Source of the DNA: Vermamoeba vermiformis
Taxonomy: Eukaryota
Assembly: GCA_045837725.1 (NCBI GenBank)
Contig: JBEWZL010000162.1
Location: forward strand, 170,776 to 190,775
Length of the DNA stretch: 20,000 nt
Reading direction: 5' to 3'
Position 1 is the first letter of the stretch. The number at the start of each line of letters is the position of its first letter. Positions 195 through 16,480 of the stretch are shown in pieces. A program made the translations under genes and the position numbers. Under the pieces are notes generated by a model. That model had not been told where the DNA came from, did not search any database, and saw nothing but the letters and a program-made list of their open reading frames with translations.

Positions 195-3100
195 TTACAT
201 CCACTGGCTCTTCATCACATCCAGCAATTCTGTCACGCAACCCTTGATAGTTTCATTCTCCGTGTGATTTGTCCAAGGCTGGAGGGCGGGTCGAAGCTCA
301 CTAACCACTTGATGAGTTACTTGTGTATCGCGTAACAACAGCGTGCCCAGTGTGACAAGTGTCTTGTGCACCGTGTCGTGATCTGCCTGGTTCTTCAACA
401 ACTACAACACCGCATTAGATACGGCCACACCAACAATGAGTTCCTTACCTTAACAGCAAGATTCGCTGCTTTGATCTTCGCTTCTGTATTTTCTCGTGAA
501 GTTGGCGAGTTGAAGAAAATGACCGAGTAGCTAATAGCTAACGTTAGTAAAACGGCGCTAATACATTTGCCAAAAGATACGTACTTCAGCAGGACACTAG
601 CAATAATACTCGCGAGATTCTTGTCGGCAACGAAGGCCATAGCACCACCAACAATCTTGTCCAGAATAACATCTTGGTACTGCAACAAAACTGTGTTAGA
701 TATCTTATAAAAATGACGACTATTGACGTACCAGTCGCAAGCTAGGCACGAAGTCCGTGTGCGCGAACAAATTGGAGACGAACTTCAAGCCCAGCATGAA
801 GTTGATCTTGGAGATATTTTGCTCTACAAGACAGGTTAGTATTACTAATTCTCTAACTACGATATGTATAGACGTACCAGGGACATTGGTGAAATTCAAT
901 AATATCTTCAACAGGTCACGTTCTTGGTTCAAATCAAAATCTTTGGTCATTTCAACGAAGCGCGTGCTCTTCGACTTGAAATAAGCGTCTGTGTACTTCA
1001 TCAGCTGCATAGCTGCATGTTGGTGCAACACTAAGATACGCAAAATATCCAATGCTACATATAAATCGTTAATGGGAGTGCACCTTCGAAAGTGAGAATG
1101 AGATCCACGTACCAGGGAAGACTTTATCAGCGGGCCATTGAAGCAGCTTCCAAATGACGTTCAACTCTTCAGTCATAAAAGTTGATGCCTGCGTGTTCTC
1201 AGCGTACTGTTGCAACGAGGCCACTGTTCGTTCCAAGAATTTAATTTCCGTGGCGTCCAAGGCCATTGCAGGGTTCAATTTGCCAACAGGATCGTTGAAC
1301 GATAATAACTTGGCCAGAATTGCCTCGTACTTTCCTTGACTGTACGTCAGCGGCTTAGCCTACGATTATCAAATGGTTACTCTCGTGCAACTAGATCTGA
1401 AATATTTTTAGCCTTACTTGGAATGGGAAGTGATTGTATTTCTTGTTCATTTCGAGGACGCGGAGCAAAGGATCGCCGGGCTTCAACAAATCTCTAATCT
1501 TTTTCTTGACGATGGCCTCAGGGTGCTCGATGAAGTACTTTTGATTGTTTCGCACGAACAACGCGACTTTAGAGTGCTGTTGAACGAGGTTCTCGCGGAT
1601 GCAAAAGTCCATTGCCACTTGTTCGGGGTTGTCTGTGACGTTAAATCCGAGAGGTCGTTTCAAGCGATTTGAAACTGCAACACTTCTGATCACGTCATAC
1701 TCCCGCTCATCGAGAACGTCTTCTTCTGTTATAGACATGCCCTCGGTCATGTCGGATTGATCTTTTTCTTGTTTTTGTTGGATTTTCGAGAGATCATCTT
1801 TCTGGCGCAAGAGTTTTTCTCGCTTCATTTTGATTTTTTCTAATTGTTTCAAGTCTTGCCTGATTCGTTTCATCTCTTCGGACTCGTTTTCAATGTCCAT
1901 CGGATCATCGTCGCTCGAGTCTGGATCGACGCCCGCTTCAGGATCTTCGTCCTCAACGCCACTCGTGTTAATTCTGAAGAAGCCTTTGCCCGGGATAAAC
2001 ACCATCTTATCGCCCTTTTTAGGACTCTTTTGTGCGGATTCATCTTGTGATTGCAATTGTTGAATGAGTGCCATTAATTTCAATTGATTCTCCATTTCTC
2101 GTTGTCTTCGTTCTGCAAAGGCCACGCGTTAGTTTACGCACCGCTGGTAACAATAGTAATATTTAAATATAAGATACTAACCTAGTAACATCCTCACGCT
2201 GGCTTCTAGTTTCTCTTGTAAGCTTCTCGAGGCCTCGCGATCTTTTGCAATCTCGTCCGAGTCACGCAAATTGTCGTCGTTTGACATCAAACTTTCAATT
2301 TCAGGCATGACCTCTTCCAAATCTGGACGCAAATAATCTTCTATTTTTTCATTCTCGTGTAATGTGTTTTTAAATGCCATATCTAATAGCGGCCAGTCTA
2401 CTTGCTCGCCTGCAGAAAATATTATGAGCATTGATAAACAAATCAAAGTATCTTTTGAATATTACCTTCAAGCATCACTAGTGGCACGTAATGATTTTTA
2501 TAATGCGAGCTCCAAGCTAATGCCAACGGTCTGGCTTTACACTCCTAAAATAGATTACGTTTTCAGTGAATAACGTCAATATTGATGATGAGACATAAGT
2601 ATCCCAAAATGAAAGCCATTAATTACCTGTGCTCCGTGGCGTGTTGGCAAAAATAAGGCGGCTACACCAAGCTGAATTAAAAACGATTAGAACGAGTTTC
2701 TGAAACGGATCTGCAACGAAACAACAAGAATTTTTTCAGAATAAAGAGGCGTTGTTATTTCTGTTATGCACGATCATGATGACCTGTTATTATGCATAAA
2801 AATACGGTGACGCCTCTTAAATATTTAAGAAAATCGAGATCGCAAATTCCTGGTTTTGTGCGGTCCCAAAATTTACGGCAGAACTACAAATATTATATGT
2901 CATAAATAATTTTACATACCTCGCCCATGCCGTAGCGCTCAATATCTTCATCTGAACCGTAAATAATAATTGGTCGTTTCAACACGTTGGCCATCGCAAA
3001 AACGTGAATAAATTGTAAATGTTGACCTTTTTCCGATGCTTGATGTAATATTTGCTCGAATTCTTTTTCTTCATATTTTTCTGCGCTTATTTTCTTATAC

Positions 3101-3414
3101 CACTCAAGATTCGTTGAGAGCTCTTCGTGCAGAGACTTCCTTAATAATTCCCAGAATATCTCTACTCCCCACATGGCACGAGAGAGTGCGTGAAGTAAGC
3201 AGTTACCATCTCCTGTCGTTTGTAGAGGTACCAGCTTAACAGGCATGAACTCTCGGACTTGCTTCGATATAAAATCGATAGTCTCCCATTGCACTATTTC
3301 GAAGAATTTCTCTTGATTATTTTTGACTGATTTTGGCAGCTTGAAGGTTGTATTGGTGGATGGCAGCTCTTTGTGAAGGAGTTTTTGACCGTATTGTAAG
3401 CAGAAAATACACAT
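195..3414 (-). CDS. VCPIP1-like OTU deubiquitinase fused to PFU and PUL domains (PLAA/Doa1/Ufd3-like C-terminus), about 813 aa, 11 exons
   Basis: Exons 3414-2920, 2671-2627, 2544-2466, 2409-2182, 2112-1418, 1359-1113, 1054-878, 823-732, 679-585, 530-449 and 401-195 join in frame through GT..AG introns (2442 nt). OTU Cys box TTGDGNCLLHALSRAMWG and His box LAWSSHYKNHYVPLV. PFU-like YDVIRSVAV..LGFNVTDNPEQVAMDFCIRENL. PUL-like HFPF..AILAKLLSFN, WPADKVFPALDILR, ASVLLNYS and KTLVTLGTLL. Confidence 0.85.
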
Positions 3415-3710
3415 TGGTTTGCTTGTGAATACAAATATATACTAATAAATACAGCACACCTTCTATTTACAATGCGTGTTCTTCTGGCATAAAAAATTCG
3501 CGAACAAGTCTTTGGCAGAAATTGGAATTTCTATCGTGGCTTAACTGCAAAACTTGGCTTAAACTATCTAGCTGCGCTTCGTTGCGGCATTGCTTCCTAC
3601 TTCTCCAAGCAACTACCACGCATGAGAAACGAACAAGGCGTCTGAGGTCCCAGCATTATGGATTAGGTGCGTAGCAATATCTCTTGCTTTGTTTGAGTAT
3701 TAGTGCAGCT

Positions 3711-3787
3711 TTCTTCTATGATGATACAAATTTTACACAGACCTGTTCTGAAAAATAATGAACGATACTGTAAACCTGACGCAAGAA
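3711..3787 (+). ncRNA. SNORD25: Box C/D snoRNA, SNORD25/snR56-like; predicted guide for 2'-O-methylation of SSU rRNA G (yeast Gm1428 equivalent)
   Basis: Box C ATGATGA 3718-3724. Guide CACAGACCTGTT 3736-3747 is complementary to conserved 18S AACAGGUCUGUG. D' CTGA 3748-3751, D CTGA 3776-3779, terminal stem TTCTT/AAGAA. The D'+5 rule points to the first G of AACAGG. Confidence 0.85.
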
Positions 3788-3945
3788 ATAACCCCTCTTA
3801 TTTTTTTGGTTGATGCGATCGTGAATATATTTTCTAATATTTTTTTTCTCAAGTGCAGAGTCCAATCTCGTCGTTTCTTTGCAATGTCATGGCTTTGGTA
3901 AGCTATTTTATTCAAAATTAATTTTTTCAACAACAAATCCGCGAC

Positions 3946-4019
3946 ATAACCTGATGAACTTTTGTACTGTCCGTGTTTCACCTGATTTGAAATGATTACA
4001 ACCCTCAGTACCTGATTAT
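3946..4019 (+). ncRNA. Box C/D snoRNA targeting LSU rRNA UGAAACACGGAC (the U18/snR18 target region, in a shifted register)
   Basis: Box C CTGATGA 3951-3957. Guide GTCCGTGTTTCA 3969-3980 is complementary to conserved 25S/28S UGAAACACGGAC. D' CTGA 3982-3985, C' ATGATTA 3992-3998, D CTGA 4012-4015, terminal stem ATAA/TTAT. Confidence 0.85.
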
Positions 4020-4153
4020 ATTTCATTTATAATTTTTAATCAATTTTTCACGTTGATTTTGATATTAATGTCATCTGTTCAGATCGCCATCGACTTGTCC
4101 TACCAAACCTTGTCGTGCGCCATTCAGACTTGCACAATGTAAGTTATCTACTC

Positions 4154-4222
4154 ATCACAAACACCCGTCAAGATACTTGCGCTCTTCCCTATAGGGCGTA
4201 AGGATAATAGGGTGTGATAGCT
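4154..4222 (+). ncRNA. Candidate single-hairpin H/ACA-like RNA in intron 3 of the host gene
   Basis: Lower stem ACACCC 4161-4166 / GGGTGT 4210-4215. Internal loop GTCAAGATA / GATAATA. Upper stem CTTGCGCTCT 4176-4185 / AGGGCGTAAG 4193-4202. ATA triplet at 4217, 14 nt after the base of the upper stem. Confidence 0.4.
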
Positions 4223-4551
4223 CATCTTGCTCCATCCGTTCCTCTAACTCATGTTTGTTATTACAGGTGCACCTGGCTACAAGGATAAATTCGCTGTTTG
4301 CAGGCTACCATAAGAGAAGCTTTTTGCGGTGATAGCGAACTATGGGCGTACGCGGCACGTTTCCCAAGTCAGCTGACCGTTACCGAGTACTAGTACTACG
4401 TAATAAATCGTACCAATTTAAATTAAAATATCGACTATTTGCCCTACGTTTTGCATTCATCATTATTTTAAATTAATAAATAAAGAAACGAGACTTTTTG
4501 GCTCAGAAACGTCAATCAGGCCAAAATTGCTTATAATTACCTTTAGCCGTA

Positions 4552-5068
4552 ATGGCACCTCCTAGCATCGAGATAGTCAGAAGTTGACTTCAAAATCTTC
4601 GCTTACGACGTATCCGCGCTTAGCTAAGCGGTCTTGATCACTTGCTCGGTCTTGGTGCACCGTAAGAAATTTTGGCAACAATATATTAAAATTAGTGCCC
4701 TCACTGCCGCCGGTGCTAGCTCAATAGTAGCCTATATGTTTTTAGTCAAAGGTCACAAAAACGCTTGGGATTCGCTCGACACCGATCAGATCCACGCAAT
4801 GGTTGCTTATGGCCTAATGATCTTCGGATTATTGGGACACTATAGAACAATGCTGAAATGGTTCCCTTGGACTCGTGTAGCGTTTTATTTCTACAAGCTG
4901 GTCCGATTTTTTCACATCATGTTCTTCATAGTGCAAGAATCAGTTGGCGAGACATTTGACAACATTGCTTTCGTGGCATTTTTTTCAGCGACATTAGAGC
5001 TGCTGCATGAAATGATGTTCGAAGCGGATGCGGTCGAAAAAGAAGTTAAAGTACATCTGCGTCACTAG
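4552..5068 (+). CDS. Small multi-pass membrane protein of unknown function
   Basis: Probable exons 4552-4575, 4624-4661 and 4696-5068 give MAPPSIEILSGLDHLLGLGAPALTAAGASSIVAYMFL... About four hydrophobic segments. AATAAA downstream near 5118. The 5' exons are less certain. Confidence 0.6.
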
Positions 5069-7595: not shown

Positions 7596-9240
7596 ATGTT
7601 ACAAACATTAAAACGATTGGTGAGCCAATCTGCAACGGTAAGTGACTGTTACAAGCCTTTTGCAATTTACTAATTAAAATAGTACAATAATTATACTACT
7701 TAATTTCACAATAGGCGTTTAATATTAGTATTTCTGGCATCTTTTTCAATTTGCGTTTATAATTAATTAAAATTGACACCAACCGGCTATCGCTGTACCT
7801 GGACGAATTATGCTAGATATGTAATATATATTTTATAGTAATTAAATCGAATTTTTAGGCGCGTTGCTTTGGTAGAACGACCAAATCTCCTTGCTCGCGA
7901 TCCCTTCTCTTCATCCACAGCAAAAGACGCTATACAACCGAAAAAACTGAAGCACAAAAAACACAGCTTGATGAAGTAGAAAAAGCTAGAGCCATATTAG
8001 AGTCCAGAAAGTCCGGCACATTTACCACAGTAGATCTGCGAGTAAGTTCATTCAACCCATTAGGCCAGGTCTAAAATCATTAAATAATATATATATTATA
8101 TACCTTCTATATGTTCTCCATACTGACGTGTGCTTTTAAGATTTCACGCACTCAGACGATAGATCCAGAGAGCACAGGACCACCATTGTTCGGCTCATTA
8201 ATGCCCTATGTGCTGATGGCACGTAAGCCTGGTGTGCCCGTAATCGCTCTGCGCAAGGACGAGAAACATTATAGCAACATTCAGACCGTGGCCAAGTCAT
8301 CTCTAACAGTACGGAAGCCACCTCATCGGCTCGCGAGTTTAGTACTCACTTTATTATTGACAGGTATTTCCTTTAACGCCACCGAACATCAATCCGTCGC
8401 TATTACCACTGCCAAAGGTCAATATCGTTGGGGATTTAAAGATTGTGTTGGATCGAGATGAGATTGAACCAATGATCGATCGGTACGACGAAGTGCACAA
8501 AGGCTCGAGAAAGTTTGTATCAGACTCAGAAGTGTTCGAGTTCTACGAGTTTGAGCCATCAGATGCGTACTACGTGCGAAGGTAATATCCCACAAATAAG
8601 ATAGTCGCGTGCTCCATTCATGAATCGTACTAACCACCTTGCAGTACTGGAGATAATGTGCAGTTCACGGGAAAACAATTTACTATGGTAAGTTGCGATA
8701 TTAATCGAAATAGTAAGGCGGTTGTTGAAGAGTTTAAAAAAACAGGCGCCATCTGATCCCATCGCGCGCCAATCAAGAGTTCTTATCGACAAGATCAACA
8801 ACAATTATGCCGAAGAGTTGAAGAAGATGTGCAAGGAATACGGAGATACCGACGTTGATGAAGTGTTTGTGTTCGGGCTCGATCGGTTGGGATTCGATTT
8901 GATGGGCCGGTACGTAATATCTTGATTTCATATTAGTGAATTGATCCATGTGCGCACGAACCTCTATTAATTAATTCAATCTGTGTGAGCTATTTTGCGC
9001 AATAGCAATGCAACGGATGGAGGTGAAACAATTCACTCAAAACTCCGCCACGTCATCGCCCACTTGAACCATGGTATTAATTCTTTCATAATTAGTGTTT
9101 CTGAGGGCAGTTGGTTGGAGTTTAGGTTCCCTCTCCCGTCTGAGATCACAAACATCGGAGATTACGAGGCATCGTTAGAACAGTCGTTACAGAAGATGCG
9201 ACCTTCTACCGGCACGCCTTTCACCAATAAAGCTAAGTAA
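7596..9240 (+). CDS. HugZ/HOZ-like PNPOx-family split-barrel protein with a C-terminal DUF2470/GluTR-binding-like domain; probable mitochondrial presequence
   Basis: Arg/Ser-rich, acid-free N-terminus (MLQTLKRLVSQSATARCFGRTT..RRY). Motifs EKARAILESRKSGTFTTV, FGSLMPYV, HYSNI..SSLTV, PKVNIVGDL, DPIARQSRVLIDKINNNYAEEL, GLDRLGFDL and EFRFP. Multi-exon. Confidence 0.75.
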
Positions 9241-14498: not shown

Positions 14499-16480
14499 AT
14501 GAGAAGCAACATTCAGCGGCACTCCTTAGCACTCATTTTATTGTTTGCAGCCGTTATGGAAGCTGCTAATTCGTCACGCGTTTGTCCCTCGCAATTACAG
14601 AGCCTAATTGACAATCTTCTTGCAAACAGTCCCATTGTAACCCGTTCACGCTGGGGAATTTATGTAGAAGAGATTAATAATCAAACGTGGCAAGGAAAGC
14701 CTCTTTACTCACGTAGGTATTTTGATTAATTTAATGGAGATATTTTCAAATCCGGTTAGGATCAGTTAGATAATAATCAAATAATAAATTAATCGTAGGG
14801 GATGCTGTAAACTATTTTTTGCCTGCCTCTACGAATAAAGTGCTGACATCTGGATCTGCCTTGCTGTCTCTCGGCCCTGACTACGCTATTAAAACTGACG
14901 TAACAACCTACACGAGCAAGACTACAGCAGCTAATAGTAGAAGCACTGTAGATGTATTAATTGTGACAGGTAACTTTTCTAACTCGTTTTCTGAGCTGAT
15001 CAAATTTCTCAAGGACGCGGTGACCCCTCTTTGACCTTCCAGAAGCTTGATCAGCTCGCCAGTCAGCTGTCTCAAAGCGGAATAACCACTGTTAATTTTG
15101 TTGGCGTCGATCAATCGTATTTTAAGGCGTTACAACCACCAAGCACTTGGGATTGGGGCGATCTCACCGCCAATTACGTAAGTTACGGAAATATACGATG
15201 CATATTAATAACTGGAATATAGGGTGCTCTGCCGACACCTTTTGTATTGAATGAGAACGTTATTACCTTTACTGTTGTCCCGCCTTCAGATCCGAGTCAA
15301 AATGTCCAAGTCAAGTTCTACAATAGCGCCGATCAAGACTATTTGTTGAGCAAGTTAATCATTAACGTTGCTACGAGTAAGTTTGATTGCGCATTAGCTT
15401 ATATCTATCTTTTTATTTTTCGTTTATTTTCCTAAAAGCCAGCTGGATCTATTATTATTTGTACTAATAATTTTTTGCAGCCTCAACTCCGAATGTCAAT
15501 ACACTCGATGCTAATTATCAATGGGGCACCACTTATCTCAAGTTGACCGGTCAAGTTAGCGTTGGCGCGCAATCGTTCGATGTTAGTGTTGCTGTAGCCG
15601 ATACAGCGCTCTATTTCCAAAAACATTTCGTGGCTGCGTTGAAAAACAACAATATTCAAGTCACACACGAGGGCTTGCACACGATGGAAGCGATTAAACA
15701 ACAGATCGCGTTCGACGATAGCAACGAGTTCATCATTCAATCGGCGGCTTCGCTCACCTCGCCGCCTTTATATGTTATGATGAATAATACCTTGCAATGG
15801 AGCGTTAATTTGGAGGCTGAAATGTGGCTCAGACATTTAGGAACAAATTTCATCTCAGATCGTAAGTCCAAAAGGAAAGTACTAAAGAAATCATGTACTA
15901 ATATGACATCGTAGCTAATCTCGACGAGGTTGACAATGGCTTGGCTAAAGTCAGATCCGTTCTCACTAATTTGGGCGTGGACGGTGATCTGTTCATTCAA
16001 GCAGACGGCAGTGGATTGAGTCGCAAGAATTTAATCAGTCCCAAATCACTCGTACTGTTCTTAAGAGCTATATTACAGAAGGCACCTTCATTCGTGAACA
16101 TTCTTCCTGTTGCTGGTACGAAAAAGATGCGATCCGTTACCTTATCTTACCTGGCACTAATTTATCATATAATTTATATAGGCGAGTCTGGTACACTGAA
16201 GTATAGATTCGTTGGCACTCCTGCTCAAGGCGTTGTGTTTGCAAAGACTGGTAAGATTGGATCGAGATCTGTAAGAGGTTCTCGTGAGCCTAATTGAATA
16301 TCGATAACTATAGGATCGTTGTCTGATACATATACATTGGCTGGGTATGTCTTGCGTCCCGGCCAGTACAATCCTATCGTATTCTCAGTGATGGTAAATC
16401 AAAACGCCGCTGGATCTGGACCTGCTCGTCAGTTGATGGATCAAATTGTAGTTCTCTTAGCTCAATTGCAATACTGTTAG
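14499..16480 (+). CDS. dacB: Secreted D-alanyl-D-alanine carboxypeptidase/endopeptidase (PBP4/DacB, peptidase S13)
   Basis: Signal peptide. SxxK (PASTNK), GRGDPSL, W.WGDL, SxN (SVN), DGSGLSRKNLISP, PVAGESGTL and KTG (FAKTGSL) motifs. Multi-exon. Confidence 0.9.

Follow-up and report, generated by a model that had tools for sequence, protein, structure and literature searches.

Genes that carry small nucleolar RNAs (snoRNAs) in their introns and encode no protein in their exons are described from animals and fungi. The mammalian gene UHG (SNHG1) hosts U22 and U25–U31, and in Neurospora crassa clusters I–V are UHG-like non-coding hosts with short open reading frames (ORFs) only and one box C/D snoRNA per intron, the homologues of snR56/U25 and U18 being intronic (PMC2780460). 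In both Neurospora and human, intronic snoRNAs lie 41–60 nucleotides (nt) from the 5' splice site. Amoebae have given an almost entirely intergenic picture: in Entamoeba the snoRNA genes are mostly intergenic, with one intronic, and in Dictyostelium discoideum a single box C/D gene is not intergenic, and half of the others form clusters with equal spacing (PMC8817022). Here, we analyse a 20-kb stretch of Vermamoeba vermiformis DNA (the window, at its full length), in which the + strand region at about 3500–4480 is probably a gene of the UHG/GAS5 type, dedicated to hosting snoRNAs and encoding no protein, a reading to which we assign a probability of roughly 75%. No non-coding snoRNA host gene for Amoebozoa or other protists is described in the open-access literature that we searched, subscription literature lying outside the search.

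The locus has in common with mammalian UHG and GAS5 one snoRNA or snoRNA-like RNA per predicted intron, short non-coding exons that are not conserved, and cargo of the U25 family. It differs from them in having three introns only, in the tiny size of these introns (128–192 nt), in its non-animal host and in its mixed cargo of two C/D RNAs and one H/ACA-like hairpin. The distances from the 5' splice site to snoRNA 1 (43 nt) and snoRNA 2 (48 nt) fall in the 41–60 nt range of Neurospora (those to the 3' splice site are 70 and 63 nt), whereas the lineage and the snoRNA combinations are different, the third intron carries a hairpin RNA, and no evidence of alternative splicing is seen here. The original prediction, made from the letters of this stretch, had proposed a metazoan UHG/GAS5 layout in a protist host; the interpretation is supported, but the layout was already known outside metazoa, and because UHG-like hosts exist in Neurospora the novelty is smaller than had been implied. 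What is noteworthy at the locus is the lineage, the clean conservation pattern, a register-shifted U18-like guide and the third cargo. We put forward tentatively, at somewhat less than even odds, a broader proposition: that this is a dedicated non-coding host gene in Amoebozoa, kept between species while its exons diverged beyond alignment, which combines two C/D guides and an H/ACA-like RNA of one hairpin that lacks the ACA, and that such host genes either predate the split of opisthokonts and amoebozoans or arise repeatedly given splicing-coupled assembly of snoRNA–protein particles (snoRNPs). If the host is amoebozoan, the UHG/GAS5-type design would reach beyond animals and fungi, which would contradict the intergenic picture from Dictyostelium and Entamoeba and bear on when the 'intronization' of snoRNAs arose.

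The anatomy can be read directly from the DNA (Table 1). The region 3500–4480 contains no long ORF on either strand and is divided by three GT..AG introns, all three of which hold a conserved RNA and one of which has its junction seen joined in one contig. The exon 1 donor (AG/GTGCGT at 3666/3667) has TG/GTGAGT as its counterpart in a related metagenome locus (L013), a branch-like CTAAY motif stands 15–25 nt before the AG of every intron, and signals of these types (GTATGT, GTACGT, TTCTAAT, ATCTAAC) also mark the introns of the neighbouring protein gene. The three intronic RNAs are regularly spaced at about 230 nt. Since exon 1 is without read coverage, its start is a guess, placed at a pyrimidine tract (3594–3607) where L013 is also pyrimidine-rich; more speculatively, this tract might be a start of the terminal oligopyrimidine (TOP) type, as in vertebrate snoRNA hosts. 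Several elements of the original prediction are borne out at this level, namely the three introns with exons of 39 and 56 nt between them, the absence of a credible ORF (those that start with ATG in the spliced RNA are 2–44 codons long) and a full C/D snoRNA with a 12-nt rRNA complement in each of introns 1 and 2, both being perfect D' guides. The polyadenylation signals that it named are present, but AATAAA is common in this AT-rich window (41 matches against 31 expected), so that the hexamers after exon 4 are weak evidence by themselves.

Judged from its sequence, snoRNA 1 is a member of the U25/snR56 family. It has a C box AUGAUGA (3718–3724), a D' box CUGA (3748–3751), a degenerate C' box and a D box CUGA (3776–3779), closed by a terminal pairing of 6 bp (TTTCTT/AAGAAA). 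Its guide ACACAGACCUGU followed by CUGA is an exact match to the snR56/SNORD25 family consensus, and through the same element it aligns to the Rfam families DdR1 and snoR25. The D' guide CACAGACCUGUU (3736–3747) abuts the D' box and is a perfect 12-nt Watson–Crick complement to AACAGGTCTGTG in the small-subunit (SSU) ribosomal DNA (rDNA), a fit equalled by 4 of 1000 shuffled guides. This and the other searches for targets in ribosomal RNA (rRNA) used foreign rDNA units; the units are eukaryotic ones that contaminate prokaryote genome records, and Rfam confirmed their SSU, 5.8S and large-subunit (LSU) genes. In this register snoRNA 1 should select the SSU G of AACAG, equivalent to yeast Gm1428, a site served by CD19/CD41 in N. 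crassa, snR56 in yeast, U25 in human, snoR19 in plants and CD1 in Dictyostelium (PMC2780460, PMC8817022), where CD1 (DdR1) guides 17S-Gm1506 (PMC8817022). In other metagenome loci the U25-type snoRNA stands in tandem copies, about 2.85 kb apart (L015/L016) or 211 nt apart (L056), which shows the same guide in quite different genomic organisations. Intron 1 holds, besides snoRNA 1, a 17-nt block, TTGATGCGATCGTGAAT (3810..3826, +), between a T-run and the branch-like TTCTAAT. The block is retained in L013 except for one deleted G while its surroundings drift, and RNAalifold pairs it with GACGCA at the D box and 3' end of snoRNA 1 through 6 base pairs, all invariant; it could be a processing element, an assembly element or part of an alternative structure.

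SnoRNA 2 has a complete set of boxes, with C (C)UGAUGA at 3951–3957, D' CUGA at 3982–3985, C' UGAUUA at 3993–3998 and D CUGA at 4012–4015, and a terminal stem of 4 bp (ATAA/TTAT). Its D' guide GUCCGUGUUUCA (3969–3980) lies one nucleotide from D' and is a perfect 12-nt complement to TGAAACACGGAC in the LSU, and 1 of 1000 shuffled guides is equally good. There is some circularity in this match, since the motif used to retrieve the rDNA includes it; the motif is nevertheless present in every LSU retrieved. Through GUCCGUGUUU, the core of U18 (SNORD18), snoRNA 2 would bind the same rRNA helix as U18, but its D' box is 3 nt farther from the shared core. The methylated nucleotide is the one paired to the fifth position upstream of D or D'. 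Given the three extra nucleotides between core and D' CUGA, snoRNA 2 should therefore select a different adenosine, the middle A of GAAAC in the LSU sequence UGAAACACGG, 3 nt 5' of the U18 adenosine. We considered snoRNA 2 as a functional equivalent of U18 and rejected this, as its register does not select the A equivalent to yeast 25S-A649; the Entamoeba U18 homologue, unlike snoRNA 2, has the canonical register. Dictyostelium has a corresponding pair of sites, 26S-Am841, guided by CD12, and Am844, guided by CD24 (U18), the former with no yeast, human or Arabidopsis equivalent listed (PMC8817022). Hence, snoRNA 2 is better termed CD12-like than U18, a likeness that lies in the predicted target position only. 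The Dictyostelium CD1 and CD12 genes are intergenic, mono- or polycistronic (PMC8817022), unlike the intronic RNAs here, and the second guides of the two RNAs here differ from theirs or have no target found. An AT-rich block of about 25 nt (4026–4052) in intron 2, 3' of snoRNA 2, is also conserved in L013. A scan of both strands of the whole window for a C box, an rRNA complement of at least 11 nt and CUGA returned snoRNA 1 and snoRNA 2 only, and both carry, as their D' guides, an antisense element of at least 10 nt ending at a D or D' box.

The third cargo is a single hairpin in intron 3, which we consider real. It has a lower stem of 6 bp (4161–4166/4210–4215), an upper stem of 10 bp (4176–4185/4193–4202) and between them a pocket of 9+7 nt (4167–4175 and 4203–4209), and is followed on its 3' side by G, AUA (4217–4219) and GCU. 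The fold has −24.4 kcal/mol and a z of −3.44, a stability that none of 200 shuffles matches. The AUA (4217) stands 14 nt from the top of the pocket (4203), the canonical H/ACA spacing, so hairpin, pocket and box distance all agree with an H/ACA guide; the triplet itself is AUA in the window and AAA in L013 and not ACA. Neither an H box (ANANNA) nor a second conserved hairpin stands before the 3' splice site of intron 3, and Rfam gave no match at E up to 10. With no ACA, H box, second hairpin, Rfam match or target, we call the RNA H/ACA-like only, and the odds that its class is the one its geometry suggests are about even. The original prediction of an H/ACA-like hairpin in intron 3 thus holds for the hairpin (z −3.44), while the H/ACA label is unproven (AUA/AAA, no target). 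The trypanosomatid H/AGA RNAs and the single hairpins of Entamoeba resemble it in having one hairpin, a pseudouridylation-type pocket and an ANA triplet near the presumed 3' end; the triplet here is AUA/AAA in place of ACA or AGA, and the trypanosome single-hairpin families are not intronic, unlike the intron-3 RNA.

The strongest line of evidence is the related locus. A metagenome scan for U25-type snoRNAs gave 64 loci, among which L013 is the only one that also has the guide of snoRNA 2 downstream of the U25-type snoRNA. L013 aligns to window positions 3344–4249 and 7596–8048 and starts with the same OTU start codon and N-terminus (90.1% identity). Identity to the window is 98.7% for snoRNA 1, 89.2% for snoRNA 2 and 90.5% for the intron-3 RNA, in contrast to 47.9%, 39.5%, 49.2% and 38.9% for exons 1–4 and 41–62% for the intron flanks. 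L013 has kept every 5' splice site, every AG and the branch-like motifs of the three introns, including ACTAAC and the AG of intron 3, while exon 2 measures 39 nt in the window and 43 nt in L013 and exon 3 measures 56 and 65 nt (differences of 4 and 9 nt). Exon 4 gives no convincing alignment to L013, in whose own exon 4 an ATTAAA follows after about 150 nt. The interior of snoRNA 2 is identical in both, and its 4-bp terminal stem is written with other letters (ATAA/TTAT against GTTA/TAAC), which counts as two double changes once a register shift of one nucleotide is permitted. The hairpin is invariant in its upper stem and on both sides of its pocket, and the differences fall in the loop, in the flanks and at the middle position of the ANA triplet; all 16 pairs are present in both sequences, 15 unchanged and 1 altered from C-G to U-G, and conservation ends 3 nt after the ANA triplet. 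Read variants of another strain also keep the pairing (4199 U>C turns G-U into G-C, and 4201 A>G turns U-A into U-G). The exons are therefore less conserved than the intronic RNAs (39–49% against 89–99%) and share no conserved ORF, as the original prediction had expected of conserved introns and diverging exons.

Table 1 Features of the candidate snoRNA host gene and its upstream neighbourhood in the window.
Feature	Positions	Strand	Remarks
OTU-PFU-PUL gene, first exon	2896..3414	-	Pfam OTU E 4.8e-15; start codon 3414-3412
Putative shared promoter region	3464..3562	.	47.8% identical to L013 overall; conserved blocks stand out
Putative promoter blocks kept in L013			TATTTACAAT 3464-3473; AACAAGTCTTTGGC 3503-3516; GAATTTCTA 3525-3533; TGGCTTAA at 3537 and 3555
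Exon 1	3594..3666	+	3' end set by the 5' splice site; start at 3594 a guess at the pyrimidine tract CTTCCTACTTCTCC
Intron 1	3667..3858	+	192 nt; GTGCGT...TTCTAAT (3832-3838, branch-like)...GTGCAG
Box C/D snoRNA 1	3710..3788	+	U25/snR56/snoR19/CD1 family
Exon 2	3859..3897	+	39 nt
Intron 2	3898..4082	+	185 nt; GTAAGC...GTTCAG
Box C/D snoRNA 2	3946..4019	+	Complete C, D', C' and D boxes
Exon 3	4083..4138	+	56 nt; natural +1 insertion after 4096 in other strains
Intron 3	4139..4266	+	128 nt; GTAAGT...CTCTAAC (4242-4248)...TTACAG; the sole junction seen spliced
Intron-3 RNA	4149..4222	+	Conserved single hairpin with pocket; stems 4161-4215
Exon 4 and likely 3' end region	4267..4500	+	AATAAA at 4402, 4475 and 4479

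In the mechanism that we propose, the host gene would be transcribed by RNA polymerase II from the + strand, divergently from the OTU-PFU-PUL gene and out of a short promoter region shared with it. The primary transcript would run from about 3590 to 4420/4500, both ends being estimates, and be spliced at the three canonical introns; the junction 4138/4267 is seen, and introns 1 and 2 would be removed likewise. Each excised intron would then be trimmed exonucleolytically down to the small RNA inside it, protected as a ribonucleoprotein. Intron 1 would yield the U25/snR56-type snoRNA, which should guide 2'-O-methylation of the SSU G that corresponds to yeast Gm1428, intron 2 the snoRNA expected to guide methylation of the LSU A that corresponds to Dictyostelium Am841 and precedes the U18 site by 3 nt, and intron 3 a conserved single-hairpin RNA with an H/ACA-like pocket. 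The spliced exons (about 320–390 nt) would be a by-product with neither conserved sequence nor reading frame. With three cargo RNAs, tiny introns and drifting exons, such a gene would be a natural test case for what a host transcript must supply, namely a promoter, splice sites and spacing. It would also be an example of a gene that is invisible to ORF-based annotation, yet recognisable from sequence and confirmed by a single cross-species comparison, and it draws attention to the intron-1 block and the ACA-less hairpin as conserved elements that lack an explanation.

A number of observations weigh against a spliced, non-coding host. Transcript evidence came from four runs, of which X8 is only presumed to be RNA. 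One X8 contig of 161 nt (depth 3.6) joins 4138 to 4267 exactly at the GT..AG, skipping 128 nt with 58 letters on its shorter side and covering 4267–4365 of exon 4. It starts at 4082 after four letters unlike intron 2, which is consistent with the 3897/4083 junction, though not proof of it. Of the three junctions that had been predicted, 4138/4267 thus appears, in one contig of one run, and 3666/3859 and 3897/4083 are not shown directly. A second X8 contig is unspliced across 3874–4096 (exon 2, intron 2 and exon 3), and the sole X6 contig (453 nt, depth 36) is unspliced over 3988–4310, intron 3 included. The latter continues upstream of 3988 for 128 further letters that are unlike the window, with the break in the middle of snoRNA 2, and may stem from a rearranged copy, from a chimeric assembly or from DNA in a run labelled 'RNA?'. 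The two raw RNA-seq runs bear the same species label but come from a strain that is only 90–95% alike, and they gave 12 reads each. Some of these fall on the OTU exon, each snoRNA has about one, and three lie on the hairpin and run unspliced into a diverged exon 3; none of these reads lies on the host exons, and the two runs neither support nor refute exon expression. No transcript start, poly(A) site or mature small RNA end is seen in the four runs. At gathering thresholds Rfam finds no family in the window, and in E-value mode both snoRNAs stay below gathering, snoRNA 1 with snR56 at 43.1 bits (gathering 54, E 3e-4) and snoRNA 2 with snoU18 at 24.3 bits (gathering 47, E 0.46). Searches of the three foreign rDNA units, with and without G-U pairs, gave no convincing target for the D-box guides of snoRNA 1 and snoRNA 2 (489 of 1000 and 1000 of 1000 shuffles were as good, respectively), nor for the pocket of the intron-3 RNA, where 84 of 300 shuffled versions do as well as the best candidate. 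Two-sided covariation is absent from the hairpin when the window is compared with L013. Lastly, with one relative only, the conservation argument is a single pairwise comparison.

The unspliced contigs and reads, together with the regular spacing of about 230 nt, would suit snoRNAs that are transcribed independently, or a polycistronic unspliced cluster cut by an RNase III-type enzyme, with the GT..AG pairs incidental. The mostly intergenic snoRNA genes of Entamoeba, and those of D. discoideum with their equally spaced clusters, lend this arrangement some prior weight among amoebae. We nevertheless regard it as quite unlikely, because six splice sites and their branch-like motifs are kept in L013 amid random-like identity, one junction is joined exactly at its GT..AG, and no conserved promoter-like block stands before snoRNA 2 or the hairpin, whose 5' flanks are 50–61% identical. 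It is still more improbable that the short exons form the 5' untranslated part of the next + strand gene downstream (ORF 4628–5068), which would make the host protein-coding. That ORF lies on the same strand only about 250 nt past the AATAAA signals, and the 3' end of the transcript is unmapped. In L013, however, a different gene, in opposite orientation, comes after the snoRNA unit, and the downstream gene of the window is missing there, which argues against such exons; AATAAA hexamers and an AT-rich stretch follow exon 4, and the X8 contigs leave a gap from 4365 to 4702, albeit at low depth. The host gene stands alone.

A small protein encoded by the host RNA has an equally slim chance in our estimate. 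The candidates are an ATG-started ORF of 28 codons, which spans exons 2–4 and crosses two junctions, and a stop-free frame of 132 codons (spliced, 3429–4335), which crosses all three junctions and would need a non-AUG start. The length of the latter is itself a point against a non-coding host, as 26 of 5000 dinucleotide shuffles reach it. This frame has no ATG, however, and its codon-usage score of −0.06 is lower than those of the other two frames and of every one of the 11 control ORFs in the window, 9 of which score +0.11 or more; its composition is unlike that of the window's proteins. In L013, stops occur in all three frames, the longest open stretch is 59 codons, and the exon lengths differ by the 4 and 9 nt given above. 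An extra C after 4096 in exon 3, present in the X6 and X8 contigs, shifts every frame and turns the 28-codon ORF into one of 43 codons, so that both candidate products are altered. We regard the 132-codon open frame as chance and record it as unexplained; the claim that the region holds no credible ORF stands. The X6 contig also has an additional A after 4156, in the 5' flank of the hairpin RNA, and both insertions look like strain polymorphisms.

Much closer to the balance is the question of whether the intron-3 element is a guide RNA at all, and we consider it nearly as plausible that it is a structural or regulatory intron element, which for example aids splicing or the turnover of the host RNA. 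AUA/AAA in place of ACA, a single hairpin, the absence of an Rfam match at E up to 10, a pocket that shuffled ones equal and the lack of two-sided covariation all fit such an element. The stems, the pocket and the 14 nt to the ANA have the geometry of an H/ACA guide, however, both sides of the pocket are unchanged between the two sequences although the apical loop and flanks differ, guide RNAs sit in introns 1 and 2, and single-hairpin H/ACA RNAs are reported from Entamoeba and trypanosomes. The intron-3 RNA may accordingly be an undescribed minimal pseudouridylation guide or belong to another class of intron-born RNA.

Upstream of the candidate host gene lies the OTU-PFU-PUL gene (window 198–3414, -), which has an N-terminal OTU protease domain followed by PFU and PUL. 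Divergent orientation of the two genes, part of the original prediction, is kept in L013. Residue 1 of a database protein of 806 amino acids and 96% identity (P0001) maps to 3414, and RNA reads of the related strain end about 16 nt beyond 3441, running into adapter-like sequence, which suggests a 5' end of the OTU mRNA near 3457. Between the OTU start and exon 1, the blocks TATTTACAAT, AACARGTCTTTGGC, GAAATTTCTA and, twice, TGGCTTAA are conserved and probably belong to a shared bidirectional promoter. Within the window TGGCTTAA occurs only in the 3464..3562 region, but 37 of 200 shuffles also give at least two copies, so that the number of copies carries no significance by itself. The first intron of the OTU gene (2675–2916, -) is about 242 nt long, compared with about 50–60 nt for the other introns of that gene seen here. 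It was tried as a fourth cargo site and rejected: its long hairpin has a z of −1.45, with 17 of 200 shuffles as good, and there is no meaningful Rfam match. Doa1/PLAA-type proteins have a WD40 head, for which the OTU domain here is an unusual replacement. The pair of OTU and PUL recurs in the closest homologs, Pelomyxa included, the best named one being from Pelomyxa schiedti with 40% identity and the same domain pair. This homolog and the predicted Am841-type site, which is otherwise listed for Dictyostelium only, are hints of an amoebozoan lineage, neither of them decisive. An ESM Atlas search with the PFU exon gave no usable match, and a protein search with a BTB exon gave only 2 near-identical proteins, which are uninformative on lineage.

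Some minor observations concern the wider searches. The LSU motif was searched for in viral contigs and not found, and the 3 matches of the U18-type pattern in viral contigs are due to chance and are not snoRNAs. L074, a record titled Nostoc sp., and other loci in the series L068–L114 hold complete or partial eukaryotic rDNA in records labelled as bacteria or archaea, presumably as assembly contaminants, and two of these rDNA units have group I introns. In the window itself, two adjacent ORFs at 15471–16294 (+) match Peptidase_S13 (D-Ala-D-Ala carboxypeptidase), a typically bacterial family, and may be a horizontally acquired, intron-split gene in otherwise eukaryotic-looking surroundings.

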